DNA from: a virus
Lineage: Duplodnaviria; Heunggongvirae; Uroviricota; Caudoviricetes
DNA length: 64,000 bases
Reading direction: 5' to 3' (one strand)
Virus record (IMG/VR): IMGVR_UViG_3300005613_000041
Location: 11,239 to 75,238 of that record
Shown here one piece after another: positions 20,131 to 57,786 of this stretch. The notes under the pieces were generated by a model that saw only the letters and a program-made list of their open reading frames with translations, had not been told where the DNA came from and did not search any database. The first letter of the stretch is position 1. The number at the start of each line of letters is the position of its first letter. Both the position numbers and the translations under genes were made by a program.

Positions 20131-20395
20131 TTTTTCTTTTTTTTATAAAATTTTCTTTAAGACTATAAATTTGTTTCAAATCCGTCATATCTAACAGCGG
20201 ACTTTTACTCATACCATCAAAGAATTTATCAAGTGAAGCTTCTAATCCGACATCTGTAATATTACAATGGAATCTCAATTTCTGAAAGTTCATTGGATCT
20301 TCAGGTTGAAAAATAAGAGGATCTCTTTTGATTCTCTTATCAACATATTTCCAGTTATTAGCTGGGGTTTTATAAAACACGATAATTCTTTTCAT
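20081..20395 (-). CDS. Hypothetical protein (104 aa); overlaps the dut start by 50 nt in another frame
   Basis: ORF only; basic low-complexity C-terminal tail. Confidence 0.25.
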   Translation of the reverse strand: MKRIIVFYKTPANNWKYVDKRIKRDPLIFQPEDPMNFQKLRFHCNITDVGLEASLDKFFDGMSKSPLLDMTDLKQIYSLKENFIKKRKNEKYKSRTNRSKVSRT

Positions 20396-20419
20396 ACTAA
20401 TAAGAACTTTTTAATATTT

Positions 20420-20770
20420 TTAATTACATCCGGAATAACCACACGAATAACATATTGTACATCCATTTTCATGAACAAGTTGATTACCACAATTAGGACA
20501 AGCTTCAATAGCTTTTTCCCCATCTGGTATATACTTTTTAAGTACTCTAGAAATAGCACTCATAAAATCATTCAATCCATTACTCATCTTCTTACACTGA
20601 TGAATAACAAATTTAATGTCGGCGCCATGTCTTAACAACATTGAGGCTAAAACAGTTATAATTTTTTCATTAGGAGTAGTATCAGCGATGTTTTCAATAC
20701 TTACTTCATCACTTTCAAATTTATATACCCCTTTTTTAACTTTAACTGTATATCCACTAATGTCTCTTTT
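20420..20770 (-). CDS. Ribonucleotide reductase (class II-like) exon 3: C-terminal Cys-rich zinc-finger tail
   Basis: Frame open from ~20885 down to the stop at 20420; ends 'EACPNCGNQLVHENGCTICYSCGYSGCN', the CxxC...CxxC zinc finger typical of class II RNR C-termini; the 5' limit is approximate (20770-20782). Confidence 0.55.
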   Translation of the reverse strand, partial: KRDISGYTVKVKKGVYKFESDEVSIENIADTTPNEKIITVLASMLLRHGADIKFVIHQCKKMSNGLNDFMSAISRVLKKYIPDGEKAIEACPNCGNQLVHENGCTICYSCGYSGCN

Positions 20771-22034
20771 TATATTAGGGTTAACAATAGCAAATACTTC
20801 ATATGGCTTACCATTTAAAAGACCAACTATAATACCATAGTATATGGATTGGACTTTTACGATTGAATAATGAGCTTCTAATTTTTTAGGTCTTTTAGGA
20901 GCATCATTTTTTGGTATAACTTCAGTAACTTTTTCTTTATTTAGATTTGAGATGATGTTATTACGACTACCATCTCTATAGCTTTTTATCTACTACTTTC
21001 ATAATAGTTTGGACTATACCATAATCCTTGTCAGGATTCTTCCATTATAGTCTCTGAACGTCTCGTAATCCATTTATAATCATAACATTCTATTGGACAG
21101 TCTCCAATATAATCAAGAAGTAAAATTAAACCTTTATTTCCTAAATGGTACGCGCCACCTTTTTTATAAGAATAAAACTTTACTTGATTACCAGTAATTT
21201 TTTGAAGTTGTTTTAACACATACTCATTATAATGTTTACAAGATATTTGTCCTCTGTTATTCCAACTTTTACTTTGTTTGGAACTAGAACCATCCCCAAT
21301 ATACCACCAAAGTAGCATAGTAGGTGTTAAATTAATATCAGGTAAAATTTTTCTAAATTGTTTTTGTGTTATCATTATTTCTTTTGGATAAAATAAATTA
21401 TAAATATCCATAAATTCTGGTCTTGTTTCTGTTTGAAAAGTATAAGCATTTACTCCTTTATATATTTCAGAACATTTAATTCCTTCGTTTAAAAAGAAAG
21501 GTATAATATATTCTAAAACTTCTCTATGTTTATCAGTATAAATAAAATGGGGGTATTTGCCTTTTATAGCTAATCTCATCCCACCATCTCCTAAAATCAT
21601 ACCTAATATCATTTCTTTTAAACTATTAGAAATATTAATAGGTTCTTTATAAAAAAAATCTCTTACAGATTCTTTTACATTTCTAATCTTTGTACCAGAT
21701 TTTGCTATTTTATAACGAATCTGTCCAATGTTTTTATTATACTTTTGTGAAAGTTTATTCATACTTTCACCTTGCTTATATTCTTCTATGATTATATCCC
21801 ATAGATTAGGATTTCGCTGCTGATTATCCATTTATACAATTTAAAAAGGTTTAACAATAATATTATACAAAGGTATAACAAAATTATTAAAATTCCAAAT
21901 AAAATTGTATTTATTTTCATTATTTTAAAACATTCACACTTATCATCTCTGATTATGTTGTAGTTAATGAAACTTTAGGAAGTTCCAGCAATTTAGAAAG
22001 TTTTCATCTATATATTACTATATAGAGCCGCCTA
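20771..22034 (-). other. Group I intron 2 of the RNR gene (~1.26 kb) with an embedded LAGLIDADG homing endonuclease gene
   Basis: RNR exon 2 reads ...LKGITVNI then TAG at 22032; the RNR-like frame resumes ~1.25 kb downstream; the same GUUAAC / AAYAUA sequences occur at both candidate junctions; the intron 5' region is homologous to the ATPase-gene intron; boundaries are +/-12 nt. Confidence 0.6.
21031..21831 (-). CDS. LAGLIDADG homing endonuclease (double-motif) with N-terminal HTH-like region, intron-encoded
   Basis: 'LGMILGDGGM' and 'LLWWYIGDGSS' LAGLIDADG motifs; free-standing ORF with its own start inside the RNR intron. Confidence 0.85.
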   Translation of the reverse strand: MDNQQRNPNLWDIIIEEYKQGESMNKLSQKYNKNIGQIRYKIAKSGTKIRNVKESVRDFFYKEPINISNSLKEMILGMILGDGGMRLAIKGKYPHFIYTDKHREVLEYIIPFFLNEGIKCSEIYKGVNAYTFQTETRPEFMDIYNLFYPKEIMITQKQFRKILPDINLTPTMLLWWYIGDGSSSKQSKSWNNRGQISCKHYNEYVLKQLQKITGNQVKFYSYKKGGAYHLGNKGLILLLDYIGDCPIECYDYKWITRRSETIMEES

Positions 22035-23354
22035 TATGTTAACGGTAATACCTTTAAGTTTATAATTCCATGCATCTAGATAGATTCGTGATACAACTTC
22101 TTTTGGTATATCTGATGGAAGATTTATGGTCGAACTTATGGAATGTGATGTAAATTCTTGTAGAATACTTTGCATTTTAATTCTAAACTCCCAATCAATT
22201 TCTTCAGCTTCAACCCAAGGAAGCTCTTTTTTATGAAGTTTGGTAATACTTTCATCATCTGTATCAATACCTTTAACTTTACAATAGTCATAAACTCTTG
22301 GGTGTATAGTACTATATTTTTTAAATTTTTGACCATCTTTGTCTATATAATCATAATCTTCTGTTTTGTCTTCTACTTTAACAGATCTAGTACTAAACAT
22401 AGAATAAATAGGTTCCATTCCACTACTTACACCATGTTCAAGAGACTTACTACCTGTAGGAGCAATTGTACTCCACGATACATGTCTTCTACCGAACTTG
22501 CTCATTCTTTTCCATTGTTCAGGATACTCTGATTCTATAAATTCATAAAATGAATTACCTCCTTGTTCAAGATTAATATCAAATCCTTTAAATGGTCCAA
22601 ATCTGATTGACAAATCAATAGTTGAATCAAGTTCAGCTCTCATTTTAATTTTCATGATAGCTTTAGCATTCATTAATCCATTCTCAGAATCATATCTGAT
22701 GTTAAGAGCTGCTAAAACATCAGCTAATCCCATAATACCTAATCCAATTCTTCTACTATTAACAACATTTCTTCTAATAGTATTCCACAGATTAAATTCT
22801 TCCAGTTCAAATTGTTGTGAAACAGTAATATGTCTAATAATCCTATCAATTGCTTCGATTTCTAGATCAACTAGAATATCCATTAAAATAATGGATTCAT
22901 AAACATATTGATAAAATTTATCACCATCAAATACTGCATTTTCCGTAAAAGGATTTTCCACAAAATTATAAAGATTCATATGACCGAGAATACAGCTAGC
23001 ATACGGTTGAAACCATATCTCACTACAAGGATTACATACTGAACCTTTATACTCTTTGTATACACTATCAGGTGCATAATTATTATGATTGTCACTAAAG
23101 ACAATTCCAGGTTCAGCTACACTATGAGCAGCATCAATGATTTTATCCCATAATACTCTAGCTTTTACTTTTGATGAATATTCATCATTATCACCAAAAT
23201 ACAATTCATAATCTTCATCATTGATTACTGCCTCCATAAAATCATCAGTAATATCAATTGATAAATTAGCACCTGTTAGTTTAGTTAAATCCTTTTTGAC
23301 TTCAATAAATTTCTCAATATCAGGATGATGAATATTAAGAAGTACCATCAACGC
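22035..23354 (-). CDS. Ribonucleotide reductase (class II-like) exon 2
   Basis: Begins 'ALMVLLNIHHPDIEKFI' (RNR HPDI motif); active-site 'VCNPCSEIW'; 'STIAPTGS' and 'TINLP' RNR motifs; ends 'KLKGITV..'; the annotated Met is a TTG artefact; a 5' splice junction is required. Confidence 0.8.
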
Positions 23355-23692
23355 CTAAGGTTTAAATACCTTATTAGACTATATCTTCAGATAAGACTAA
23401 GTTCTTATCCACCTATGCGCTTCCAAACAATGAATTTCACATTGAATGTACTTTACTCGGTTACTCACCATTAACTGTAATGGTTGTCCTTTCAATAGTC
23501 GTTACACTTTCATTAGTATATTCAAAATATAAACCTTGCCTTTTACTTTTTGTAATAGAATTTGGTCATTAATATACTAATGCTTAGCACGGTATTATTA
23601 TATATTCGGCAAATATATAGTTTCCACCGTTAGCCCTTATAAAGGACACCCTATATTTATAGGTTCACATAGTTTTGAGGCACATTTTGTTT
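23355..23692 (-). other. Group I intron 1 of the RNR gene (338 nt, no ORF)
   Basis: Exon 1 ends ...NGRRG (GGU, 5' splice site after U) and exon 2 starts ALMVLL, restoring the conserved RNR 'RRGALM..HPDI' sequence exactly; intron ends in G (omega-G); core has GACUA...UAGUC P7-like pairing. Confidence 0.8.
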
Positions 23693-24223
23693 ACCTCTTC
23701 GTCCATTCTGAGCTACTTCATTTGTAGTACGACTATATCTCTCAGCAAATGAAATTACTCCCGTAGATGTCTTAGCAGCATTGTTTACTGTTGCTCCTTC
23801 TGGTCTTAGTGTTGATAGATTAATACCAACACCACCTCTTCTTTTCATAATATTAGCCAATTCAGCATCTTTCTCGATAATACCAACATAACTATCTCTA
23901 GGAGAGGCTATACCATAACAGTTACTTAGACTACCAATCTGTTTAGTTCCTATTAAAGCTGTAGGACTGCCAGCATAAGTAAAAAGTTTTTCTTTAAATA
24001 TACTACTCAATTGATCGAAAGATAACTCTTTTCTTTTTTGTCCATATTCAGATAAATCATTCTTATCATGAATAACTTCTTTATGTGTTCGTTGACTCAT
24101 AATTCTTATAATTTCAGATACTATTGTATCATATCTATCATAAACAGAATTTTCATCTTTATCTTTATACTTTTTATTCCATATTAATTCTCCGAGAGGA
24201 TTATTATCAAAGTAATTATTCAT
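23693..24223 (-). CDS. Ribonucleotide reductase (class II-like) exon 1 (N-terminal ~177 aa)
   Basis: 'LSNCYGIA' and 'RRGGVGINLSTLRP' resemble the RNR N-terminal Cys and GGG(I/V)Gxx(S)xLR loop; ends with RRG at the splice site. Confidence 0.75.
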
Positions 24224-24292
24224 TTATTTAATTATTCATAAGTTTTTTATGTGAAACTTATAAGTTTCACATATTATGTTTATTCTATTAAT

Positions 24293-24511: not shown

Positions 24512-24581
24512 ACCTTTATTTGTTTATTATTCACCAATTTCCACTTATTCAAATCAATCGGAGTAGAAAAATTAAAAATTT

Positions 24582-25493
24582 TCATATTAATTCTTGTTTT
24601 ACAAATTGGTTTTGTAAATCTATCATCAGATCTCTCATTTGTGGATGTGCTGCTTTATCACATCTTAATTCAAATATATGTTTCCATTCTTCAATGGTAG
24701 CTTTTACTACTATTTCTGTTTTAAGAGCATTAGGAAGTATTTCTCTAGCTTGTTCTGGTTTCCAATTAAAATTTCTCAAATGTTTATAGTTCATTTCAGT
24801 ATAAAACAATTGCTCACAAAATAAGTTAGAGGAATCCCATACATTTTTAGAATTATCATACCAAGGTGGTTCTATAAATTCAATATCACCTTTTTCATCA
24901 CAATATCTTGTAGATTTTTGAGCAAAACTACACAATCTATGTCTAACTAGTTCATGCGTCACTCCACGATTAGTTATAAATTTAACTGTAACTTTCTTCT
25001 TTTCCTCAATGTCTCCTGTAAATCCTGATATTTCTCTATTACATTTTAATATTTTTCTATCACCTGTAATAATTTTAGATAAATTAAAAATAAAAGCATT
25101 ATAAAAAGATATTGCAACTTCTGATTCTTCTTCAATATTATCACTTTCAAGATACTCTATAATTTCTAATCCTGCTCTTGGATTAATTATCACTATAATA
25201 CCATTATGACAATCATGTGATAAAAAATCTATACTATGAAAACAAGATAGATGAAGAAATCGAACAAAAAAATAATGAGCTTCTAAATCATCTAAATAAA
25301 GTATAATATCTTTACCAAATTCTAACATCGCATAGTGCTTTCTTTTGATGAGATTTTCTACCAACTTAATAGCAGAACTATCATCTTCAGTAATTTTATC
25401 TTCACTTTTATAACATACTCTAGCGGCTCTTTCTATATCTTTAAGAGAGCCTTGTGATTCCCATATTTCAGAAGATTGTTTTACTAACTCCAT
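24582..25493 (-). CDS. thyX: Flavin-dependent thymidylate synthase ThyX
   Basis: ThyX signature 'RHRLCSFAQKSTRY' (RHRxxxxxxxSxRY) and C-terminal 'AREILPNALKTEIVVKATIEEWKHIFELRCDKAAHPQMRDL'. Confidence 0.85.
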   Translation of the reverse strand: MELVKQSSEIWESQGSLKDIERAARVCYKSEDKITEDDSSAIKLVENLIKRKHYAMLEFGKDIILYLDDLEAHYFFVRFLHLSCFHSIDFLSHDCHNGIIVIINPRAGLEIIEYLESDNIEEESEVAISFYNAFIFNLSKIITGDRKILKCNREISGFTGDIEEKKKVTVKFITNRGVTHELVRHRLCSFAQKSTRYCDEKGDIEFIEPPWYDNSKNVWDSSNLFCEQLFYTEMNYKHLRNFNWKPEQAREILPNALKTEIVVKATIEEWKHIFELRCDKAAHPQMRDLMIDLQNQFVKQELI

Positions 25494-37827: not shown

Positions 37828-38190
37828 TTATTCTCCTTCATAATATTTTTTCATACAATTCAATACTTCCTGCATGTCATTAGGAATTTTAAGTGCAGGA
37901 AACATTCCTTCTGGTGATTTTGCTGGTACTTCTAAACCAGCATCATTTATCATTCTATTAGTGATAAAAGAATATTCAGCTTTTTTCTCCTCGTTAAAAC
38001 TGACAGACGTAAATAAGCAAATACTTACAACAGCAAGTGGATTATACTTATCATCAAGCATTTTTCCAATAAGTTTTGTTTTGAGGAGAGGTTGTTTATC
38101 TGCAACATCTTCATGAAATGTCATAATAACATTCTTGTCAGTTGGCACTTGATTTTGAGCAAACTTTATAATTGACTGCATATTCACAGC
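37828..38190 (-). CDS. AAA_24/Sak4-like P-loop ATPase, exon 2 (C-terminal half)
   Basis: 'KNVIMTFHEDV...KPLLKTKLIGKMLDDKYNPLAVVSICLF' matches the sensor/'nvi.iaH' segment of phage AAA_24 ATPases; the upstream frame is closed by a stop 4 codons before the Met. Confidence 0.5.
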   Translation of the reverse strand, partial: AVNMQSIIKFAQNQVPTDKNVIMTFHEDVADKQPLLKTKLIGKMLDDKYNPLAVVSICLFTSVSFNEEKKAEYSFITNRMINDAGLEVPAKSPEGMFPALKIPNDMQEVLNCMKKYYEGE

Positions 38191-38486
38191 CATTTTAGTA
38201 AATTTATCATCATTTTAATCTTTTATTTTTCAATAAAAGTCTGACTATATCTTAATTAATAATATTAATTCCTACCTTTTCCAAGAAAAATTCTTGTACT
38301 CTACTCACTTCCAGTTAAACTGTGTTTTCGATAGTCGATGAACTTTACTCATTTTAAAGAGTCTTAGCTGCTGATTGTCCAATATTAATTATTTTTAAAC
38401 ATTCACGTTTATTTTTTCAAATTACGTTGTAGTTAATTAATCTCTAAGGAGTTCCCAGCAATTAAATAGGTTTATAGTGAACATGA
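38191..38486 (-). other. Putative group I intron splitting the AAA_24 ATPase gene (~300 nt, no ORF)
   Basis: ~75 nt at its 5' end are ~80% identical to the 5' end of RNR intron 2 (AAUUGCUGGRAACUYCC...AUUAACUACAACRUAAU...GUGAAUGUUU); contains CGACUAUCGAAA...AUAGUC P7-like elements; boundaries approximate. Confidence 0.5.
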
Positions 38487-38789
38487 AAAATATCCACTAG
38501 TATTAGCTTTCTCAAAATATTCATTCAACATACTAAACCCAATGTCATCAATAATAATATTTTTGATATTTGGGTCAGTCGATTTAGCTGACATAGCTTT
38601 AATAATCTCTTCTGACGTTACGAGTCTAGCAATATTTTTGTTAGCAGCATTATATTGCTTTCTACTACCTTTCCATGGTAGTTCTTTTCCAGTAACATTA
38701 ATAATTACTGTCTCATTTGACGGTAGATTTTTAAATGATGTTGATTTACCAGTACCGGTATCACCAACAATCATAATTATATTTGCCAT
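38487..38789 (-). CDS. AAA_24/Sak4-like P-loop ATPase, exon 1 (Walker A/B half)
   Basis: Walker A 'GDTGTGKST'; Walker B 'IIIDDIG'; only 105 aa before a stop, i.e. half of a ~230-aa ATPase. Confidence 0.55.
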
Positions 38790-41636: not shown

Positions 41637-42398
41637 TTATAAGGTATTTATTATAAGTTTTTTTGCTTCATCTATATAATAATCATAATCAATCATCTGT
41701 TTTAAACTTTCCAGATCTATATCAGTTAAGTTATTACAAACGATACAAGTTTTATCAACTTCGAGATATTCTCTTCTCATCTCATTTTTTCCAGATAGAG
41801 GAGGCATGATTTTAGCTAGATAAATACCATTATTTGAAATACAATATCGAGTAACTTTACCTAATTTTTCTATAACTTTTCCATCTTCATCAAGAATCAC
41901 AAACTCATGACTATTATTTTTCTTGACGGCTGATTTAAAATAATCAAAAATGTCATCATGATTTCTTATAAAACTTTCTATATCAACCCCATCTTTATAA
42001 AAAGCTTCAACAGCTTTTGGAACAATCATCATTGAATGATTTTTATGAGGTTCTCTATCATATTCATAAGCACCCTTTTTCTTCAATGAACCATTATCGA
42101 ATATCCCAATATAATTATTGCAATCACGGATATGTAACTCTTCATATTCTGCATATTCCAGTTCCAGATTAGTAAGCTCTTCCCATTTTTTACACACATC
42201 ATCAAATTCATCTTCTTTATTACGAGGAATTCTTACTTCACCACCATCTGTATTCATCATTAATAATTGACATCCTTCGATTTTCAACAACTGTTCAACC
42301 AACATAGTCAACATAAGTTGACCATTCAATGTTATTTGAATAACTGCTTGAGGATCTCTTAATTCACTAAAATTATCATTCATTTTCAGTTTTATTAC
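41637..42398 (-). CDS. Family B DNA polymerase exon 2 (motif C and KxY region)
   Basis: Frame open upstream to ~42416; '...AVIQITLNGQLML...LLMMNTDGGE' (motif C YxDTDS-like) and 'KKKGAYEY' (KxY); the 5' splice boundary is approximate. Confidence 0.65.
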   Translation of the reverse strand, partial: VIKLKMNDNFSELRDPQAVIQITLNGQLMLTMLVEQLLKIEGCQLLMMNTDGGEVRIPRNKEDEFDDVCKKWEELTNLELEYAEYEELHIRDCNNYIGIFDNGSLKKKGAYEYDREPHKNHSMMIVPKAVEAFYKDGVDIESFIRNHDDIFDYFKSAVKKNNSHEFVILDEDGKVIEKLGKVTRYCISNNGIYLAKIMPPLSGKNEMRREYLEVDKTCIVCNNLTDIDLESLKQMIDYDYYIDEAKKLIINTL

Positions 42399-43439
42399 CG
42401 TAATATCATTTAAATATTACTTCTATATGTTTCCATGTAGCTTAGACTATATCATTATCCTATATATTTATATAGGATAGTAGGCGCTCGTGTCTTTATT
42501 ATATTCTACAATTGTAGTTTCAAAAGTTAGTCGTTGCTCTTTCTATAACCATTTAAATTATAGCTTAGATCAGTATTATCATATCAATTGACTTAGACTT
42601 CTACTGAATTCACCTACTTCCTTTATTGTGTTACCACAATAAGGGGCTGTGTATTATATTTAAACTTTCTTAAAAAATAAACCTTTATATGGCTTATTAA
42701 AATTTGAAGACTTATTAATATTTACAGATTGTAACAAATAAGGAGAATAACTTTGTCTTCCATTTGGATTTCTTAAAATCATATGTTGTTTTAAGATAAA
42801 TTCGTCTTGTAAAGATAATTCTTCGATATCTTTAGCACTTCTCCATTCTCCTAAATAATTCATGTTTATATCGAAAACTTGAATATTAGGATTATTATTT
42901 CTCTGAGCATTTATTTGATTTGTTCTATCAGGTTTTTTTCTTTTAGGAACTTTTAAGTGATCTGTAGAAAAATACTTTATACCTTTATTCCAAGGAGTTC
43001 TATTTCTCAAAGTTTCTTTTACATGATCTAATTCACCATTGTCGTATTTTCTCTTCATTGTTAAACGTCTTTTGTTAATAGCTTCTTGAGAAAACTGACA
43101 ACCACCTGTAGCTAACAAATTTATATTATATAAGTTTTCAAAATCTTCTTTGTCAATATATGTTTGTTCAAGTTCTAGAATATTATCATTACAATGTTCT
43201 AATACATTAAACTCAAAATTTTCTTCTCCATATTTATTCCAAGCATATTGAAGATGAGAATTCTTATGTTTATTATTTTTTAATACATTTTTATGATGAT
43301 AAATTCTTTTTTCTAAATCAATACTAGAACCAATATATTTTTTACCATTTATTTTATTTTTTATTTCATAAACACCTTTCATAGTATACCTCCTTTTAAG
43401 AGAATATACTATAAATTAAGTTTAAATACAATTTAAACA
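42399..43439 (-). other. Group I intron in the DNA polymerase gene (~1.04 kb) carrying a GIY-YIG homing endonuclease gene
   Basis: Exon 1 stops 5 codons after motif B 'KLSGNGSYG'; motif C resumes ~1 kb downstream; the proposed junction YG|V follows a U and the intron ends in G; a strong SD (AAAAGGAGG) precedes the embedded HEG. Confidence 0.6.
42660..43382 (-). CDS. GIY-YIG homing endonuclease (I-TevI-like), intron-encoded
   Basis: 'GVYEIKNKINGKKYIGSSIDLEKRIYHH' canonical GIY-YIG motif; free-standing, with its own SD. Confidence 0.85.
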   Translation of the reverse strand: MKGVYEIKNKINGKKYIGSSIDLEKRIYHHKNVLKNNKHKNSHLQYAWNKYGEENFEFNVLEHCNDNILELEQTYIDKEDFENLYNINLLATGGCQFSQEAINKRRLTMKRKYDNGELDHVKETLRNRTPWNKGIKYFSTDHLKVPKRKKPDRTNQINAQRNNNPNIQVFDINMNYLGEWRSAKDIEELSLQDEFILKQHMILRNPNGRQSYSPYLLQSVNINKSSNFNKPYKGLFFKKV

Positions 43440-44648
43440 ACCATAACTACCATTGCCAGATAGTTTTAGAGCTTTATTAAGAACACTACCTTTTGGATAT
43501 TTCGATCTTTCAATTTTAATATCATTCATCGTGGTACAAAATGTAGGTCCAAGATGAAGAGGATAAATATTATTTGTAATCATCATCGACGGATAGTAAC
43601 TTTTAACATCAAAACTTTTAACAATATAATTTTCATTTGTAAAAAAGTTACCGTAAGTAGCTTGGTGAACACCACCAGTACCGTAAGTAATTTGATTACC
43701 TTTAAAATTAATTGTTAATGATTTAATTTCGATTTCAGGATATTCTAGTAAATCTTGATATTTCTCAATTGTTACTTTACGAGGTTTTCGTTTTAGATTT
43801 GATTTTGAAATATCAATAATCGGTAATATTTCTGTTAAGTTTTTATTTGGAATATCAGTAAAAGCACCTTTAGTCTCTTTTATTTCTCTTGTTTTTAACC
43901 AATTTAAAAACTGATTAAGATCAGATGACTCAAAACTGACATATGGAAATATTACATCTTTAAACTTAATGATTTCTCTATTAGTTTGACCAAGCTCATC
44001 CTTCTCTAAAGCAGATTTAAGCTTAGATACCAAAATAGATTCTCCAATTTTAACATCATTGAAATTAGTCATATCTATATTAAATCTTTCACTTAATTCT
44101 TCTCTTAGAGAAATATGTCCTAAACTGTGTTTTCTATAAAATTCATAAGTAGCGAACAAGTCATTCTGATTATAGAAAATGACTTCATCCATCTTATCTA
44201 ACGGTACTATTTCATCATGTTCTATAGGCAAATCTTGGACATTCTTCATTCTCATAAAAAACTCAAGTTGTTTAAGACTTGTCATTTTTGCTTTATTATT
44301 ATAATGATGAATTAGTCTAAGATCTATTTGGGGAATAAGTTGAGGAATACGAGAAGGATATTTACTTCTAACCAAAATGTCACTGTAAGTTTTACATAAA
44401 CCTACAATAGTAGACATTTTGTATTTTTTTGATTGAACTAATGATAAGAAATGATATAATAGAGGATAATCAAACGATATGTTATTAAACCCTATCATTT
44501 GTTTAACATGACGAAGATATTCTACTAACTCATCATATTCAAGCTTTCTTTCTGAAAATTCAAAGTATTTTTCTTCTTGAGATTCTGTTTCAAGAAACCC
44601 AAATAATAAATAGTTTTTAAAAATCTCAATATCATATATTACTTTCAT
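43440..44648 (-). CDS. Family B DNA polymerase exon 1 (3'-5' exonuclease domain, motifs A and B)
   Basis: Exo I 'IYDIEIF'; Exo II '[11 protein letters not shown]'; Exo III '[13 protein letters not shown]'; pol motif A '[11 protein letters not shown]' (DxxSLYPS); motif B 'KLSGNGSYG'. Confidence 0.75.
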
Positions 44649-48789: not shown

Positions 48790-48825
48790 GACGTTTTCTT
48801 TTGTTTAAACTATTTGAATATCTTG

Positions 48826-48877
48826 TAGGGTCAGCGGGATTCGAACCCGCACGTCCATTACTGAACACAGGATTTTA
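48826..48877 (-). tRNA. tRNA-Leu(UAA): tRNA-Leu(UAA) 3' exon (anticodon nt 34 onward, long variable arm, T-arm, acceptor)
   Basis: UAAAAUCCUG...GCGGGUUCGAAUCCCGC-UGACCCU-A pairs with the 5' exon acceptor GGGGUCA; reconstituted anticodon loop is CUUAAAA. Confidence 0.75.
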
Positions 48878-49257
48878 CTTACCACTATAGCTTTCGCTAC
48901 CAATAATCAAGCTTACACGCTCTCCTCACCTCAATGGATCGTCTATCCATTTGGCAACCTGTGCCGTCTTGCGCGACAATTATTGTTTGTAGTCTGGACT
49001 ATGCCTTCACCATATTTAATTAGAACTTAGGTGGGGTGATTATAGTCTCTGCACGTTCTTAATCTATGACATTAGCCAACTACTTCATACACACCTGTAT
49101 GTTTCGAGCCTGTTAATTCAGGCTTTCAATTAAGCTTCGCTCAAGGTTAGGGGCATATATTTACAGATTGCTACAACTTTTGATTGTAGTCATTGCTACC
49201 CGTTCCTTGAATTTACACCCTGCTAATACATTGTTTCCAATGTAAAGACCCATTAAA
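48878..49257 (-). other. Group I intron (380 nt) in the anticodon loop of tRNA-Leu(UAA), at the canonical position between nt 33/34 and 35
   Basis: 5' exon ends ...AGGACU(U); intron ends in G before UAAAAUCC; interior has GACUA/UAGUC P7-like motifs; 380 nt with no ORF. Confidence 0.7.
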
Positions 49258-49291
49258 AAGTCCTAGGCGTCTACCAGTTCCGCCATGACCC
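49258..49291 (-). tRNA. tRNA-Leu(UAA): tRNA-Leu(UAA) 5' exon (acceptor, Leu-type D-arm, anticodon-stem 5' half)
   Basis: GGGGUCA-UG-GCGGAACUGGUAGACGC-C-UAGGA-CU(U); D-arm GCGGAAYUGGUAGACGC is diagnostic of tRNA-Leu. Confidence 0.75.
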
Positions 49292-49350
49292 CATAAAATA
49301 GAACAAGTAATATAATTACTTGTTCTAAATAAATCAAAGCTTTTTTAAAG

Positions 49351-52945: not shown

Positions 52946-53018
52946 ACCCACTGATCAAAAAGGCTAGGGCTTTATCCATTAAGCTAAGAGGGCATATATT
53001 GCAGTATTTTAAATAGAG

Positions 53019-53092
53019 TACGGATGGTAGGACTTGAACCCACTGTCTCAGAGATATAAGCTCCGTGCATATACCAGTTATGCTTCATCCGC
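53019..53092 (-). tRNA. tRNA-Ile(UAU): tRNA-Ile(UAU)
   Basis: Hand-folded cloverleaf: GCGGAUG acceptor, anticodon loop CUUAUAU, T-arm GUGGGUUCAAGUCCUAC. Confidence 0.7.
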
Positions 53093-53287
53093 ATCAAATT
53101 AATTTATCATGAAGTATTCTTCTAATAGATCTTGAAAATTATCAAAGAATTCAAGTCTCCTTATTCTGGGATTTACAAGTGTGACTTTTTATCCAAATGA
53201 TTATATAAAAACTAACAATACTACTTAAAATTATGTTTAACATTTCAGAGGTTTCATACATAATATCATGATTTGATTATTAAAATG

Positions 53288-53360
53288 TGGAACAGACAGG
53301 AATCGAACCTGTGACCACTAGATTTTCAGTCTAGCACTCTACCAACTGAGTTACTGTTCC
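53288..53360 (-). tRNA. tRNA-Phe(GAA): tRNA-Phe(GAA)
   Basis: GGAACAG acceptor, D-arm ACUCAGUUGGUAGAGU, anticodon loop CUGAAAA, T-arm ACAGGUUCGAUUCCUGU. Confidence 0.8.
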
Positions 53361-53365
53361 TTTTG

Positions 53366-53450
53366 CGGAGATAGTAGGATTCGAACCTACACAAGATATT
53401 AACTCGATAGTTTAGCAAACTATTGTGGCTACCAATTTCACCATATCTCC
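53366..53450 (-). tRNA. tRNA-Ser(GCU): tRNA-Ser(GCU), type II
   Basis: GGAGAUA acceptor, anticodon loop UUGCUAA, long variable arm, T-arm GUAGGUUCGAAUCCUAC. Confidence 0.75.
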
Positions 53451-53462
53451 AACATTAGATAG

Positions 53463-53536
53463 TGTACCGAGTGAGATTCGAACTCACGATCCTCAGATTA
53501 AAAGTCTGATGCTTTAGCCTACTAAGCTACCGATAC
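53463..53536 (-). tRNA. tRNA-Lys(UUU): tRNA-Lys(UUU)
   Basis: D-arm GCUUAGUAGGCUAAAGC, anticodon loop CUUUUAA, T-arm GUGAGUUCGAAUCUCAC. Confidence 0.8.
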
Positions 53537-53563
53537 ATAAAAAAAGAAAAATAAATAATTTTT

Positions 53564-53785
53564 TTATACTTCAATTCCTCCTCTATAATACCATTTCATA
53601 AAATTTGGATCATTTAATTTTTCAATTGGATAATCTGTACAAAATTTACCATTAAAATATCTATGTGCTTTATCTCTACAATCATTCCAATTTTCACCTT
53701 CGATAATTGCGAGACAATTATGATCAAATGTTTTATCATTTATATAATGAACATGATCTTGACCAAAACTTATTAGTATTTTCAT
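53564..53785 (-). CDS. Hypothetical small protein (73 aa)
   Basis: ORF between tRNA genes. Confidence 0.3.
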   Translation of the reverse strand: MKILISFGQDHVHYINDKTFDHNCLAIIEGENWNDCRDKAHRYFNGKFCTDYPIEKLNDPNFMKWYYRGGIEV

Positions 53786-53811
53786 ATTTTAATTATTTTA
53801 TTTTTTTTGAG

Positions 53812-53884
53812 CACGTGCTGTAAGAATCGAACTTACCCAACAAGTTTTGGAGACTCGTTCGCCAGCCTTGGAACATGAGCACGT
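53812..53884 (-). tRNA. tRNA-Trp(CCA): tRNA-Trp(CCA) (slightly irregular D-stem)
   Basis: ACGUGCU/AGCACGU acceptor, anticodon loop CUCCAAA, T-arm GUAAGUUCGAUUCUUAC. Confidence 0.6.
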
Positions 53885-53944
53885 ATTTACTGGGCTTCCT
53901 ATAACTCACCAATTCAATATACAAAAAGTTTGATAACAAAAAAA

Positions 53945-54403
53945 TTATTTTTCTACTTTACCAAAAATAATTTCAAGGAGCTTCTTCTTTATCACAACAT
54001 TTGGGATTCTAAGTGTTCTTGGGTCATCAAATCCCATAATGGTTCCCACCTCGCAAACGGCTCCTGAACGACTTACCCCAGCTGCACAATGAACAATTAC
54101 GTTCCAGTTGTTTGAGTAAGCCTTCTGAAGAACCGATACTATATCTACAGCGTCCTTATGATCGATACAATCCTCGGAATATGTATCATCGATCAGGTAT
54201 CGATGGACCTCATGGAATTCGTATGGTGATACTGGAAATTCTACAAAACTCCCACTAAACCCGAAATCATCCCTTTCTTTGGAAAGTATCTGAATTGCTA
54301 TGGCATTCTCACCAGGATCTCGATGTGATCCCTCGACAAAAGCCATATATGATACGTTTTGAATGAATGCCATTAAAAGTTCTTCTCTCGACCTTTCACC
54401 CAC
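53945..54403 (-). CDS. Dual-specificity (Cys-based) protein phosphatase
   Basis: 'VIVHCAAGVSRSGA' HCx5R P-loop signature; higher local GC. Confidence 0.65.
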   Translation of the reverse strand: MGERSREELLMAFIQNVSYMAFVEGSHRDPGENAIAIQILSKERDDFGFSGSFVEFPVSPYEFHEVHRYLIDDTYSEDCIDHKDAVDIVSVLQKAYSNNWNVIVHCAAGVSRSGAVCEVGTIMGFDDPRTLRIPNVVIKKKLLEIIFGKVEK

Positions 54404-54583
54404 CCAGTCGGTATAGGATCAGTCTTTTTTATCCTTCTGTTCTTTTTCTCTTCGACGTTGGTTATCCACATTGTTCCTTTATTGACGTGTTCCAACTCCT
54501 TCGACAAATATCTTGGATCGTTGACAGAAACCTGCATAGTTTTGCCATTCTCGTCCTTTACAGTAACAGTTCCTTTAGTTTAG

Positions 54584-54655
54584 TACTCTCCAGAGGAATC
54601 GAACCCCTATGAACCGGGTAGAAGCCGGTGACATTATCCGTTATGCTAGGAGAGC
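54584..54655 (-). tRNA. tRNA-Arg(UCU): tRNA-Arg(UCU)
   Basis: GCUCUCC acceptor, anticodon arm ACCGG-CUUCUAC-CCGGU, T-arm AGGGGUUCGAUUCCUCU. Confidence 0.75.
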
Positions 54656-54676
54656 ATTTGATACATCCGCATTGAT

Positions 54677-54910
54677 TTATCTTGGGATTATAAATGAATC
54701 TTTAATAAAGGTTGTTAGAATGTGTCCACAATCAATAACCCCTCTTTCCCACCCACTATAAAATGGATCATTTGGTTCATCAGGATCTCTTGTCTCTGCA
54801 TCACATTCGTGTAACCTCTTCTTAGCAAGCTTTATCGTCTCATCAAGAAAATCCTCATGAGACAGATTTTTCTCTTTGGCAAGCGCCAGTAACATAGCCC
54901 TATCCGTCAT
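54677..54910 (-). CDS. Hypothetical protein (77 aa)
   Basis: ORF only. Confidence 0.3.
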
Positions 54911-54967
54911 ACCTCCTCCAGCATTTTTCTGAGTTCGTCCAGTATAATCTCGGTTGTCTTTGTTTTG

Positions 54968-55052
54968 CGGGAGGAGTAGGATTCGAACCCACGGAACCTT
55001 TCGGCCCTCTGGTTTTCAAAACCAGCGCATTAGTCCACTCTGCCATCCTCCC
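54968..55052 (-). tRNA. tRNA-Ser(UGA): tRNA-Ser(UGA), type II
   Basis: GGGAGGA acceptor, anticodon loop UUUGAAA, long variable arm AGGGCCGAAAGGUUCC, T-arm GUGGGUUCGAAUCCUAC. Confidence 0.75.
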
Positions 55053-55083
55053 AAGTTTAAAATACAATACTCACATTAGAATG

Positions 55084-55158
55084 TACTACCACTTGGAATT
55101 GAACCAAGAACCTCTTGTGTATCAGACAAGTGCTCTAACCAGATTGAGCTATGGTAGT
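55084..55158 (-). tRNA. tRNA-Ile(GAU): tRNA-Ile(GAU)
   Basis: ACUACCA/UGGUAGU acceptor, D-arm GCUCAAUCUGGUUAGAGC, anticodon loop CUGAUAC. Confidence 0.8.
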
Positions 55159-55410
55159 ATTTTTAAAACTATTTTTTGTTTTGTGTTTTATTAAAGCACA
55201 AATGATACCTTTGTCAAAATCACTAGGTTCATCAAAACCCAATGATTCAATTTCAAGTCTTTTAATACAATCATCACCAAACAAAGATATTTCTTTCATA
55301 GCATAATCATAACCTTGTTCTTTTAATGTTTTATTTACATTAAACCAAGATTTTATTAAGTTTTTAAATTTTTCATGAATATAACAATCTGATTACTAAA
55401 ATTTTCAAAA

Positions 55411-55773
55411 TTAAATTAAAAGTAATGCTTCGTGTAGACCTTTTTCAAGTGCTTCTTCATAAGTACCAATAATACGATTTTTACTTGTAAATTCGACAAA
55501 TGGATCAATTGTTTTATAAACAGCATAATTTTGTATATTAGGATAATGAGTTATAACACTAATACTAATATTATACTCCTCTCTTAACCATTTTTGTAAT
55601 AACGATTGAGTTGGTGCTGAATACCAATATTTAGGTTTTGTTGGATGAAGACTTGGAAAATCAATATCATTTAATAACTCTCCTAAAATATTGTAATATG
55701 AAGCAAACTCAGTATTAAATCCCTTTTCTTTAGCTAATATAGCTATTTCAAATGAGATAATTTGTTCTTGCAT
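55411..55773 (-). CDS. Hypothetical protein (120 aa)
   Basis: ORF only. Confidence 0.35.
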   Translation of the reverse strand: MQEQIISFEIAILAKEKGFNTEFASYYNILGELLNDIDFPSLHPTKPKYWYSAPTQSLLQKWLREEYNISISVITHYPNIQNYAVYKTIDPFVEFTSKNRIIGTYEEALEKGLHEALLLI

Positions 55774-55815
55774 AATAATGATTTATTTAATGTTATTTTA
55801 AATTAGATAAATGTG

Positions 55816-55887
55816 TTCAGGAAGTAGGGTTCGAACCTACGAATGTCAGGTCCAAAACCTGATGCCTTACCGCTTGGCTATTCCTGA
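55816..55887 (-). tRNA. tRNA-Gln(UUG): tRNA-Gln(UUG)
   Basis: UCAGGAA/UUCCUGA acceptor, anticodon loop UUUUGGA, T-arm GUAGGUUCGAACCCUAC. Confidence 0.75.
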
Positions 55888-55900
55888 ATTATTGTGATAG

Positions 55901-55974
55901 ATCCACCTGAGAGACTCGAACTCTCAACTTACTGATTACAAGTCAGTTACTCTAGCCAATTGAGTTAAGGTGGA
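55901..55974 (-). tRNA. tRNA-Thr(UGU): tRNA-Thr(UGU)
   Basis: D-arm ACUCAAUUGGCUAGAGU, anticodon loop CUUGUAA, T-arm GAGAGUUCGAGUCUCUC. Confidence 0.75.
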
Positions 55975-56030
55975 ATAAACAAAACTTCTATTATTGTCAA
56001 AATTATATGTTCCTCGAACAAAACCTAAAG

Positions 56031-56117
56031 CGGAAGTGTAGAGACTCGAACTCTAAAAACGCTGTTAACGTCCTACTTGTTTTCAAGACAAGCTCCTCAT
56101 CCAGCCGGATCACTTCC
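56031..56117 (-). tRNA. Type II tRNA with anticodon UGA (second Ser(UGA)-like gene; D-arm irregular)
   Basis: GGAAGUG/CACUUCC acceptor, anticodon arm CUUGU-CUUGAAA-ACAAG, variable stem ACGUU-AAC-AGCGU, T-arm UAGAGUUCGAGUCUCUA. Confidence 0.55.
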
Positions 56118-56124
56118 TTAAAAC

Positions 56125-56236
56125 AAATCACATTTTTAGCGCTCTACCAACTGAGCTAATTATGAATTAACATAATAATGGATTTGAACCATTGACCTCT
56201 CCAATGAAATTGGAAAATATTTGCTGTATGTGATTT
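56125..56236 (-). ncRNA. Y RNA-like (YrlA-like) structured RNA element E1: closing stem AAAUCACAU/AUGUGAUUU, conserved UACAGCAAAUAUU, internal tRNA-like module
   Basis: Covarying terminal stem shared with five other copies; interior has CCAAU-UUC-AUUGG hairpin, AAUGGUUCAAAUCCAUU T-arm, AUUAUG-UUAAUU-CAUAAU closed acceptor-like hairpin and GCUCAGUUGGUAGAGC D-arm. Confidence 0.5.
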
Positions 56237-56252
56237 TATAAAAATTAAATAG

Positions 56253-56337
56253 TACCTCTAGAGAGACTCGAACTCTCAATTCCTTTTGGGAATGTAGTTC
56301 CTAAGACTACCGCGTTTGCCAATTTCGCCATAGAGGT
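56253..56337 (-). tRNA. tRNA-Leu(UAG): tRNA-Leu(UAG), type II
   Basis: ACCUCUA/UAGAGGU acceptor, D-arm GCGAAAUUGGCAAACGC, anticodon loop CUUAGGA, long variable arm, T-arm GAGAGUUCGAGUCUCUC. Confidence 0.75.
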
Positions 56338-56344
56338 ATATTAC

Positions 56345-56406
56345 AGATCATTCTTTGTATTTCATCATAAAAAAATAAAATTTTAATATTTGCTGTAAAT
56401 GATCTT
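56345..56406 (-). ncRNA. Short member E2 of the conserved stem-loop family (stem AGAUCAUU/AAUGAUCU; loop starts UACAGCAAAUAUU)
   Basis: Same conserved motif and covarying stem as E1/E3-E6; no internal tRNA-like module. Confidence 0.45.
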
Positions 56407-56419
56407 ATTAAATAATAGG

Positions 56420-56510
56420 AGGGCAGGATCGGATTTGAACCAATAATAGATGTCTGCTGTAAGTAATTTTATAGAACAAATTACTTTCTTTACCATTTGA
56501 ATACCTGCCC
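56420..56510 (-). tRNA. Atypical tRNA-like gene (91 nt): canonical acceptor, D-arm and T-arm; 8-bp hairpin (UCU-containing loop) plus ~20-nt insert in place of a normal anticodon/variable region
   Basis: GGGCAGG/CCUGCCC acceptor; D-arm UUCAAAUGGUAAAGAA; T-arm AUUGGUUCAAAUCCGAU; internal AGUAAUUU-GUUCUAUA-AAAUUACU; contains UUACAGCAGAC, resembling the family motif. Confidence 0.35.
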
Positions 56511-56524
56511 ATATAATAAATTAG

Positions 56525-56600
56525 TAGGGATGACGGGATTTGAACCCGTGTGATCTAGTTCCCAAAACTAGCGAGATAAACCAGACTCCTCTACATCCCT
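56525..56600 (-). tRNA. tRNA-Pro(UGG): tRNA-Pro(UGG)
   Basis: AGGGAUG/CAUCCCU acceptor, anticodon arm CUAGU-UUUGGGA-ACUAG, T-arm ACGGGUUCAAAUCCCGU. Confidence 0.7.
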
Positions 56601-56756
56601 ATCTTATCATTATTGTTTATGATTCATGAAAAAATGATTTCTTATGTCATTTCTCATGTCATTATACTTTACATACAATGAGTCATCGATCGTCAAAACT
56701 ACAAGAGTTCCAACAATCCCAATAACTGCTCCAATAAACATCATAATTAATATATT

Positions 56757-57113
56757 TTAGTTAAAAGAATATTTTCTTGCATCAATCATTTGAATTCCGT
56801 ATTCACAAATAGGAAAATCTGAATTAATTATTTCATTAAATCGCTTTTGTGCTTCCTCAAAAGCTTCTTTCTGAGAATAATAAACCTTAGATTTTCCCCA
56901 AACATCATACATATATTTTCCAAGCATATATAATTGGTTTTCCTCACACCATCTAAAATTATCTATAGCTTGTGTATGTGCTACCCGATATGCAATAATT
57001 CCATCTTTCACACTATGAATTTCACCATACTCATCATTAAAAGCATTATAATACCATTCAACTTTATAATTATCCTTAGTTTTCAATATGTAAATTCCAT
57101 TATCTGCTGACAT
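56757..57113 (-). CDS. Hypothetical protein (118 aa)
   Basis: ORF only. Confidence 0.35.
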   Translation of the reverse strand: MSADNGIYILKTKDNYKVEWYYNAFNDEYGEIHSVKDGIIAYRVAHTQAIDNFRWCEENQLYMLGKYMYDVWGKSKVYYSQKEAFEEAQKRFNEIINSDFPICEYGIQMIDARKYSFN

Positions 57114-57117
57114 TTGA

Positions 57118-57420
57118 TTATTCCTTAATTATTTCATATTGAATATTATGTTTTTTTAATCCGCTTTCAAAAATGTACATATCATTAGTATATTGAAATA
57201 AATTTTTAAACTTTTTACCCATTTCGATATTATAATGATTTATAATATGTTTCATTATAACTGATAATAGTTGTTCGAGAGTTAATGGATGAATTAATAT
57301 TTTATGTATACCGTCATTACCAATAGAGATTGGTATTTTGTTTTCCAAAAAATCAAACAGATCAGGTAAACGATCTACTTTTGGTCTAGAAATAATCTTG
57401 ATATAATTCATGTTATACAC
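57118..57420 (-). CDS. Hypothetical protein (100 aa)
   Basis: ORF only. Confidence 0.35.
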   Translation of the reverse strand: MYNMNYIKIISRPKVDRLPDLFDFLENKIPISIGNDGIHKILIHPLTLEQLLSVIMKHIINHYNIEMGKKFKNLFQYTNDMYIFESGLKKHNIQYEIIKE

Positions 57421-57437
57421 ATTTAGATTGAAAATAG

Positions 57438-57511
57438 CGGCTTCGAAGGGACTTGAACCCTCGATCTCTAGATTGACAGTCTAGTGCTTTGACCAACTAA
57501 GCTACGAAACC
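57438..57511 (-). tRNA. tRNA-Asp(GUC): tRNA-Asp(GUC)
   Basis: GGUUUCG acceptor, D-arm GCUUAGUUGGUCAAAGC, anticodon loop CUGUCAA, T-arm GAGGGUUCAAGUCCCUU. Confidence 0.75.
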
Positions 57512-57522
57512 ATTTATATTAG

Positions 57523-57596
57523 TGGACACAGGAGGGACTCGAACCCTCAACTACTTGTTTGCAAAACAAGAATTCTACCAATTGAATTACTGGCCC
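57523..57596 (-). tRNA. tRNA-Ala(UGC)-like (acceptor stem has two mismatches; G3:U70 retained)
   Basis: D-arm AUUCAAUUGGUAGAAU, anticodon arm CUUGU-UUUGCAA-ACAAG, T-arm GAGGGUUCGAGUCCCUC; GGGCCAG vs UGUGUCC acceptor pairs imperfectly. Confidence 0.45.
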
Positions 57597-57604
57597 ATTA
57601 GAAC

Positions 57605-57670
57605 AGATCATATTTTAATCACTACTAGTTTTATAGACTGGTTGATTTAATATTTGCTGTGTATGATCTT
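57605..57670 (-). ncRNA. Conserved stem-loop family member E3 (stem AGAUCAUA/UAUGAUCU; loop starts CACAGCAAAUAUU)
   Basis: Same motif family as E1, E2, E4-E6, with a compensatory stem change. Confidence 0.45.
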
Positions 57671-57688
57671 ATTAAATAATAAATAACA

Positions 57689-57777
57689 AAACTTAGAGTG
57701 AGATTTGCACTCACATCGTATTCTTCTTCCCGTAGGGCTGCTTTCTTTACTCTAATTCTAATTAAGCTATCTAAGTT
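57689..57777 (-). tRNA. Atypical tRNA-like gene (89 nt): perfect acceptor AACUUAG/CUAAGUU, T-loop UGCAAAU, unclear anticodon arm
   Basis: Acceptor and T-arm GUGAG-UGCAAAU-CUCAC are convincing; the central region cannot be folded canonically by eye. Confidence 0.3.
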
Positions 57778-57786
57778 TATTATTAG

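Follow-up and report, generated by a model that had tools for sequence, protein, structure and literature searches.

A phage class II ribonucleotide reductase gene very probably interrupted by two group I introns, one of which holds the gene of a predicted LAGLIDADG homing endonuclease

Introduction

Group I introns with homing-endonuclease genes in the ribonucleotide reductase (RNR) genes of phages are textbook material. We analysed a 64,000-nucleotide stretch of viral DNA (the window; positions 11,239 to 75,238 of the IMG/VR record IMGVR_UViG_3300005613_000041), in which a class II RNR gene, nrdJ, is very probably divided into three exons by two group I introns, the second of which encodes a LAGLIDADG homing endonuclease. 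RNR is the phage gene most often interrupted by introns (PMC3653736). The described cases, which include T4 nrdB and nrdD/sunY, SPbeta bnrdE and bnrdF, Twort nrdE I1 and I2, and nrdE and nrdF of the B. cereus group, often carry HNH, GIY-YIG or LAGLIDADG genes; several introns may occur in one gene, and in-frame stops follow early after the 5' splice site (PMC3653736, PMC2504315). These RNR introns sit in class I or III genes, whereas those of the window sit in a class II nrdJ, after Gly177 (NGRRG/ALM; a slash within a sequence marks the site of insertion) and within Val615 (GITV/YRDGS).

Each of the two introns has closer relatives in other genes. The first (intron 1) shows 67-76% nucleotide identity over both halves to inserts in DNA-polymerase genes of Herelleviridae, which we take to be the SPO1/SP82/Bastille family with the nicking HNH endonucleases I-HmuI and I-BasI, and to an insert in an Enterococcus NrdE gene. 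The Herelleviridae inserts and intron 1 have the same layout of P3, P4-P6, P7, P7.1, P7.2 and P8, and the forms that bear an open reading frame (ORF) hold an HNH ORF in the P6 loop. Intron 1 differs from them in its host gene, its guide sequence and the loss of the HNH gene; the Enterococcus NrdE copy lies at GGGVG/..LNLSNLR, about 50 codons upstream of the site used by intron 1. The second intron (intron 2) shares its 5' domain, P2-P5, with an insert in a Twortvirinae lysin gene and its relatives in the cr118_1 major capsid protein (MCP) gene and Listeria LPJP1 rpoB (71-82% identity). It also shares with the Twortvirinae insert a compact 3' domain that lacks P7.1 and P7.2, with P3' and P8 coming immediately after P7. 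Intron 2 differs from these inserts in having a LAGLIDADG ORF in P6 that overlaps P4', P6', P7, P3' and P8, and it differs further by an AT-rich extension of about 90 nt between P5' and P4'.

According to the portions of two surveys consulted here, intron- and intein-dense crAss-like phages (Yutin et al. 2021, PMC7886860) and Jug jumbo phages (2026, PMC12880540) are Bacteroidota-associated and have many core genes split by group I introns with LAGLIDADG, HNH or GIY-YIG genes. Those portions name MCP, PolB, primase, ATPase, TerL and nrdD as hosts and do not single out nrdJ introns; GenBank already holds a split nrdJ in cr108_1. The window resembles these phages in having probably at least five group I introns. 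What the present locus adds is modest, since the type of element is already known: a new host gene, so that class II nrdJ joins the RNR genes colonised by group I introns, two recurrent insertion sites, a natural allele series and a blind spot of the Rfam model RF00028. It leaves the understanding of how such elements work unchanged. It does matter for annotation, in that gene callers give four or five fragments here (two or three "ribonucleotide reductase" pieces plus endonuclease ORFs), and without the intron map the phage seems to have no intact RNR.

Exon map and identity of the joined protein

The minus strand from 24223 to 20420 is a single nrdJ gene in three exons, with the following main features (coordinates of the window, all on the minus strand).

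23693..24223, minus strand: nrdJ exon 1, 531 nt, codons 1-177, ending ...AQNGRRG with last base U; matches intron-less NrdJ to residue 177
23355..23692, minus strand: intron 1, 338 nt, group I, ORF-less, IA-like with P7.1/P7.2; terminal G at 23355
22042..23354, minus strand: nrdJ exon 2, 1313 nt, ALMVLLNIHHPDI ... KLKGIT plus the first two bases of Val615; last base U
20982..22041, minus strand: intron 2, 1060 nt, group I; terminal G at 20982
20420..20981, minus strand: nrdJ exon 3, 562 nt including the stop; last base of Val615, then YRDGSRNN..., with a CxxC...CxxC tail

Joining 24223..23693, 23354..22042 and 20981..20420 gives a frame of 2406 nt that encodes 801 amino acids with no internal stop. 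The joined protein scores 442.2 bits against the NCBIfam equivalog model TIGR02504 (NrdJ_Z; cutoff 399.95, residues 15-622), and residues 101-616 make one unbroken match to Pfam Ribonuc_red_lgC. When 50,697 phage records were searched by tblastn, residues 4-800 aligned in one piece to intron-less NrdJ genes of crAss-like phages, including the "vitamin B12-dependent ribonucleotide reductase" gene of cr126_1 (42.5% identity). The best solved structure is NrdJ of Thermotoga maritima (1xje, E = 2e-57). The NPC(S)E thiyl-radical loop is present, and the tail of exon 3 is rich in Cys (CPNCG...CTICYSCGYSGC) and ends at 20420. Judged by these matches, the product is a class II RNR, predicted to depend on adenosylcobalamin.

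Both junctions are free of gaps in a MAFFT alignment and in the alignment to Thermotoga 1xje: EVAQNGRRG/ALMVLLNIHHPDIE stands against VKQGSRRRGALMGILNINHPDIE at the first, and NYKLKGITV/YRDGS against TNVRGITVYRDGS at the second. An earlier reading of this DNA, made from the letters and a list of ORFs (the original prediction), had already proposed a class II-like RNR gene with a Cys-rich tail, split in three by two group I introns. It is supported by the joined frame, by the intron-less homologues and alleles and by the covariation described below. Its account of the first insertion holds to the nucleotide: exon 1 ends ...NGRRG with a U at 23693, exon 2 starts with ALMVLLNIHHPDI at 23354, and the 338 nt between them have no ORF and end in G. 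The ending of exon 2 in ...KGITV followed by an in-frame TAG is likewise seen in the DNA.

The second insertion required a different map. In the original prediction, intron 2 ran from about 22034 to about 20771, the RNR frame resumed some 1.26 kb downstream, near 20770, with exon 3 starting ...NPNIKRD, and the splice point was ambiguous within a repeated GUUAAC string. The string GTTAAC...ATA does occur at the end of exon 2 and again near 20790-20770; the second copy, however, is made of the exon 3 codons for AIVNPNIK and has nothing to do with splicing. Alignment with homologues and an intron-less allele (below) show that exon 3 instead begins at 20981, where the frame continues with (V)YRDGSRNN...; the proposed position lies 211 nt too far downstream. 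A later start would discard 70 residues (YRDGSR...PYEVFAIV) that align to conserved residues in every NrdJ homologue. The ribozyme elements P7', P9 and the terminal G lie at 21017..20982, and the intron-less allele joins the exons at 22042 and 20981. We regard that earlier boundary as practically excluded.

Reading on past the 5' splice site meets a stop after 11 codons in intron 1 and after 3 codons in intron 2. Precedents exist for reading through an insertion, in that the relative Bacteroides phage DAC16 has an intein in the same gene (1172-aa ORF) and stop-codon recoding, with TAG or TGA commonly reassigned, is documented in crAss-like phages (PMC7886860). An intein was rejected, as it had been in the original prediction, because both inserts contain stop codons; moreover, intron 2 enters its codon after the second base (phase 2), which makes in-frame fusion impossible. 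Recoding of TAG or TGA was rejected as well: the first stop in intron 1 is TAA, TAG in intron 2 is followed by an in-frame TAA, and there is no suppressor anticodon among the 22 tRNA genes that ARAGORN finds in the array of the window. The LAGLIDADG ORF, in addition, has its own start codon. Read-through in either form thus has a negligible chance of being right.

The phage itself is probably crAss-like, on the strength of its best protein matches (42% identity), the gene order NrdJ - small ORF - dUTPase and a virion protein of 4027 aa. A scan of IMG/VR seeded with the joined protein returned no close relative, and an exact-match look-up of the exon 1 ORF found no record; the sister contigs described below differ by a few residues. 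The G+C content of the window is 29.5%.

Intron-less alleles

A scan of JGI metagenome contigs gave three short contigs with 99-100% identity to the window, and two of their alleles lack an intron precisely. One contig (L257) is without exactly 23692..23355. Its junction reads CGT AGG GGA GCT, as against CGA AGA GGT GCG in the ligated exons of the window; all four differences are synonymous, and one of them puts A in place of U immediately before the insertion site. Another contig (L256) is without exactly 22041..20982 and joins ...ATTAC(A)GT straight to (A)TATAGAGATGG; it reads ACA GTA where the window has ACC GT/C, which amounts to two synonymous changes. The protein encoded by exons 2 and 3 is 100% identical between L256 and the window, and the junction residues are the same in L257 and L256. 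These precise alleles fix the intron boundaries independently of the alignments.

Over 4.3 kb, N characters aside, L257 differs from the window by 9 further single-nucleotide polymorphisms, all of them in exon 1 (24073-23911) and all within 380 nt of the intron 1 site. Co-conversion during homing has been described (PMC3984707), and this clustering is what it would be expected to leave.

These alleles also bear on the possibility that the gene is a fragmented or decaying RNR, whose pieces are translated separately and assemble as subunits (the split nrdA of Aeromonas phage Aeh1 is an example), or a pseudogene disrupted by endonuclease insertions, with no splicing at all. The ORF listing contains the corresponding pieces:

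24223..23657, minus strand: ORF of 188 aa, C-terminus NGRRGKQNVPQNYVNL followed by the stop
23351..22032, minus strand: ORF of 439 aa, starting (L)MVLLNIHHPDI and ending KGITVNI before the stop
20641..20420, minus strand: ORF of 73 aa, Cys-rich

Intron-less split RNR genes do exist in phages (PMC3653736), exon 2 could start at a TTG or ATG (23351 or 23348), and splicing of nrdJ is itself deduced from the DNA. The 5' end of exon 3, in contrast, has no start codon, and the first listed ORF, at 20641, would drop 113 conserved codons. The amino acids of the exons match those of the two intron-less alleles, which implies purifying selection on a single protein. Both inserts, furthermore, have complete group I cores whose helices covary across families, and their P1 and P10 pair and covary with the flanking exons. 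Separate fragments are therefore very unlikely, and a spliced gene of three exons is the better account.

Group I features of the inserts

By blastn, intron 1 is related to inserts that split the DNA-polymerase genes of Bacillus herelleviruses and the NrdE gene of an Enterococcus phage, and the 5' domain of intron 2 to inserts in the lysin gene of a staphylococcal phage, the MCP gene of a crAss-like phage and the rpoB gene of a Listeria phage. Two pattern scans of IMG/VR yielded at least 120 loci each. Profile hidden Markov models were built from other contigs only, with the window left out; they match intron 1 at E = 6e-18 and 5e-28 and intron 2 at E = 1e-12 and 6e-15.

The long-range helix P3 was located in the homologues by invariant anchors. 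Among the matches listed, it is fully paired in 20 of 21 distinct homologues of intron 1 (11 sequence combinations) and in 72 of 76 distinct homologues of intron 2 (44 combinations). RNAalifold, unaided, recovered P1, P3, two local hairpins, P4, P5, P6, P7.1 and P7.2 in the intron 1 family, and P2, P4, P5/P5a/P5b, P7 and P8 in the intron 2 family; for the pair counts, the second strand pair of the P3/P7 pseudoknot was added by hand. Paired cells make up 93.1% in the intron 1 family (30-43% in slid controls) and 95.3% in the intron 2 family (31-44%). Compensatory changes were found at 39 of 66 and 33 of 48 pairs, respectively, and none of 500 shuffles in either family attained the observed value. 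P1 and P10 covary with the exon at the same site: P1 of intron 2 is CCGU with GCGG in the window and CUGU with GCAG in the homologue L186, and its P10 is UAUAG with CUAUA in the window and GAUAG with CUAUC in the homologue L169. Both introns have the U.G pair at the splice site, the terminal G, P10, the P4-P6 domain and the P3-P7-P8 pseudoknot. Homology and covariation together demonstrate the predicted ribozyme secondary structure of both introns.

RF00028, the Rfam model of group I introns, was run as the original prediction had proposed and matched neither intron (cmscan of the whole window with the gathering score as threshold, and of 20000-24600 with E <= 10). In a control, it also missed the homologous Bacillus and Enterococcus phage inserts L006-L009, yet it scores the tRNA-Leu intron of the window at 47 bits. 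Because the model misses homologous inserts while scoring another intron in the same DNA, the negative result is uninformative. The failure is one of the model's coverage of this subgroup, and surveys based on RF00028 may undercount these phage intron families.

The missing Rfam match would also fit an element of another kind, for example an insertion sequence, a group II intron or a bulge-helix-bulge intron of the archaeal type. The inserts, however, contain neither a reverse transcriptase nor a domain V or VI, they lack terminal inverted repeats, and their homologues likewise are inserts splitting phage genes. They bear the hallmarks of group I, namely conserved R and S elements (GUUCAGAGACUAUA, AAGAUAUAGUC), a P3/P7 pseudoknot, a splice-site U.G pair and a terminal G, and an origin in another class of element is hardly credible.

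Several observations nevertheless weigh against a gene spliced at two group I introns. Apart from the RF00028 result, splicing itself is read from sequence. P4 and P7 are invariant across the families, so covariation neither backs nor contradicts them, and P1 of intron 2 has four base pairs only. The layout of intron 1 is atypical: P1 leads to the 5' strand of P3 without an intervening hairpin, and a pair of hairpins separates this strand from P4. Finally, the LAGLIDADG ORF of intron 2 overlaps core helices at both ends.

Structure of intron 1

The helices of intron 1 and the remnant of an HNH gene within it are placed as follows.

23686..23682, minus strand: P10 strand AAUGU
23681..23677, minus strand: internal guide sequence GCCUC of P1
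23672..23666 with 23419..23413, minus strand: P3, CUAUGUG with CGCAUAG
23630..23625 with 23594..23589, minus strand: P4
23582..23571 with 23523..23511, minus strand: P6
23500..23495 with 23382..23377, minus strand: P7, GACUAU with AUAGUC
23483..23468, minus strand: P7.1
23448..23424, minus strand: P7.2
23410..23389, minus strand: P8
23372..23357, minus strand: P9
23461..23566, minus strand: HNH ORF remnant, the 3' 106 nt including the stop codon; the 5' 500 nt are deleted between 23567 and 23566

In P1, exon GAGGU pairs with intron GCCUC and the splice-site U lies opposite G; in P10, AAUGU pairs with GCGUU of the next exon. The core elements R and S read GUAACGACUAU...AAGAUAUAGUC. P7.1 and P7.2 are both present and both covary; extra helices of this kind, between P7 and the 3' strand of P3, typify subgroup IA (IA1/IA2), to which intron 1 may belong. 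A by-eye version of P3, UGUCCUUU with AAAGGACA, which placed P7.1 and P7.2 after P3', was rejected, because covariation reveals CCUU...AAGG as a local hairpin and identifies CUAUGUG with CGCAUAG, 3' of P7.2, as the true P3. At 23672..23633 the intron 1 family has two covarying hairpins, flanked by invariant GUGAACC and GGGUGU and placed between the 5' strand of P3 and J3/4; this layout matched no named subgroup in the literature consulted.

Intron 1 occurs in an 838-nt version in four contigs (L004, L005, L256 and L258), with an HNH_3 ORF of 185 aa in the P6 loop. Two of them, L004 and L005, which were located through the LAGLIDADG protein, are 99.9% identical to the window. In the window, the last 106 nt of the HNH ORF are kept, in part because the same bases serve as P6', P7 and P7.1. 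Since 43 ORF nucleotides outside the core are retained as well, the absence of the HNH gene is a deletion and not a primitive ORF-less state. Alleles of the following kinds are seen at the locus: sites that lack the intron, introns that carry their endonuclease gene, and introns from which that gene has been deleted.

One of these sister contigs, L005 (JGI 3300005470), lacks 246 nt (82 codons) of the ThyX gene relative to window positions 24691..24935, including the RHRxxSxxxxSxR motif. The contig is otherwise about 99.6-100% identical, and the gap is either a defective allele or an assembly artefact.

Structure of intron 2 and its endonuclease gene

Intron 2 has the following parts.

22036..22032, minus strand: P10 strand UAUAG
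22031..22028, minus strand: internal guide sequence GCGG of P1
22025..22008, minus strand: P2
22000..21996 with 21043..21039, minus strand: P3, CUUUC with GGAAG
21990..21986 with 21822..21818, minus strand: P4, UGCUG with CAGCA
21972..21966 with 21921..21915, minus strand: P5
21808..21801 with 21073..21066, minus strand: P6
21052..21047 with 21017..21012, minus strand: P7, GACUAU with AUAGUC
21038..21023, minus strand: P8
21007..20990, minus strand: P9
21031..21831, minus strand: ORF of a predicted double-motif, intron-encoded LAGLIDADG homing endonuclease, 266 aa, Pfam PF03161

Exon CCGU pairs with intron GCGG in P1, again with the splice-site U opposite G, and UAUAG pairs with CUAUA of the next exon in P10. 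The core elements read GUUCAGAGACUAUA...GGUAUAGUCC. P7.1 and P7.2 are absent (P7-AAU-P3'-P8), although many relatives of its 5' domain have them. The first guess for the 5' strand of P3, CUUCC, was dropped in favour of CUUUC because of where the strand lies with respect to the conserved UAAAUUGCUGG block of 76 homologues.

The 266-aa ORF matches Pfam PF03161 (LAGLIDADG_2) with 50.3 bits (cutoff 25) over residues 73-225 and contains the LAGLIDADG motif twice, as ILGMILGDGG and as LWWYIGDGS. The reading frame is unbroken, L169 encodes the same C-terminus (WITRRSETIMEES before the stop), and the endonuclease is apparently intact. Its detectable relatives among isolated phages are confined to four Bacillus phage records with 27% identity.

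The original prediction had placed a LAGLIDADG endonuclease gene here as a free-standing unit; the ORF exists at 21831..21031 but is embedded in the ribozyme. The start codon, ATG, comes 9 nt before the P4' strand CAGCA (the Q element), and codons 4-5 contain this strand. The body of the ORF fills the P6 loop, the final 21 codons span P6', J6/7, P7 and P3', and the UGA stop is in the P8 loop. ORFs that reach into the intron core are known and are thought to require tight control (PMC3984707). The overlap could interfere with folding of the core, or the ORF could be one that is no longer expressed.

Recurrence of the insertion sites in nrdJ

The same two codon positions hold homologous introns in NrdJ genes of other uncultured phages that are only 30-41% identical to that of the window. 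The site between Gly177 and Ala178 is occupied in five loci (L073, L082, L085, L087 and L107), with or without an ORF, and the site in Val615 in two (L169 and L186), with inserts of similar size. In these same-site homologues, P1 and P10 change along with the exon codons.

The intron can also occur at another motif. In Enterococcus phage Revolver (L007, 1184..1995), the class I NrdE gene is divided by a homologue of intron 1 that has about 75% identity and contains an HNH ORF. Its insertion site, GGGVG/..LNLSNLR, is a different motif, and its guide sequence is changed to match. This copy illustrates retargeting through P1, which has been described for Bacillus introns (PMC2504315).

In phage NrdJ, insertions are also found repeatedly at the NPC(G/S)E thiyl-radical loop, which makes it a third hot spot. 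There, cr108_1 (L001) has an intron with an ORF that RF00028 scores at 33.8 bits, Bacteroides phage DAC16 (L002) has an in-frame intein in a continuous 1172-aa ORF, and the IMG/VR contigs L085 and L169 have further insertions. The nrdJ of L169 holds at least three insertions.

Proposed mechanism

Transcription of the minus strand would give a pre-mRNA with two group I introns, each folding into a ribozyme. The internal guide sequence would pair with the last bases of the upstream exon (GAGGU with GCCUC in intron 1, CCGU with GCGG in intron 2) and place the splice-site U on a G. A free guanosine bound in P7 would then attack after this U. The guide would hold the downstream exon via P10, and the 3'-OH of the freed exon would attack after the terminal G of the intron. 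The predicted ligated junctions are ...CGAAGAGGT + GCGTTGATGG at 23693/23354 and ...ATTACCGT + CTATAGAGATGG at 22042/20981, and ligation of the three exons would produce the 2406-nt ORF for the NrdJ of 801 aa.

At the DNA level, the introns would behave as mobile elements by means of the LAGLIDADG protein of intron 2 and the HNH protein that intron 1 encodes in sister genomes. These endonucleases would cut or nick intron-less alleles during co-infection, and repair would copy the intron in (homing). Candidate substrates of the LAGLIDADG protein are the empty site of the L256 type and the exon junction of the window. Intron 1 of the window, having lost 500 nt of its endonuclease gene, would persist as a remnant capable of splicing only. 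Self-splicing, endonuclease activity, homing and co-conversion are steps that we infer from sequence, and the allele series (empty, with the endonuclease gene, without it) may be used to test homing and resistance.

A bolder interpretation, which we consider rather unlikely as a whole, is that the locus is a population snapshot of the full life cycle of homing endonucleases at two sites in one phage gene. Selection might then have favoured the clustered synonymous changes at the empty sites as resistance alleles, in which cleavage is blocked and the splice-site U is lost, and the overlap between the LAGLIDADG ORF and the core could couple translation to splicing or make the protein a maturase. 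If true, this would offer a tractable natural system for the arms race between intron and host in uncultured gut or environmental phages.

Other introns and tRNA genes in the window

The minus strand of the window also holds a tRNA-Leu(UAA) gene at 49292..48825, whose anticodon loop is split by a 381-nt group I intron (49258..48878). Both tRNA finders missed the gene; when its exons are joined, ARAGORN recognises an 87-nt tRNA-Leu(UAA). The intron scores 47.0 bits against RF00028 (E = 2.6e-10; gathering score 50), has U at position -1 and a terminal G, and is inserted at CU/UAAAA, one base 5' of the classical cyanobacterial CUU/AAAA. A 2014 review states that the group I introns of phages occur in protein-coding genes, although phages have many tRNA genes, and an intron in a phage tRNA-Leu may be unusual. 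The tRNA array lies at 53018..61472 on the minus strand and has 22 genes by ARAGORN and 23 by Rfam.

At about 38490..38210 on the minus strand, an ORF-less group I intron apparently splits a P-loop ATPase gene (ORFs 38789..38472 and 38193..37828). Its P4 block lies at 38463, with R at 38342 and S at about 38250, and its 5' domain is like that of intron 2 (nhmmer, E = 6e-13).

A DNA-polymerase ORF with a partial PHROG profile match (44648..43422, minus strand) is followed, within about 43420..42390, by a GIY-YIG ORF (43382..42660) and, after it, by a group I 3' core, AACGACUA ... GAUAUAGUC, at about 42540..42440. The region of about 43420..42390 probably represents a fifth group I intron, whose endonuclease would belong to a third homing-endonuclease family.

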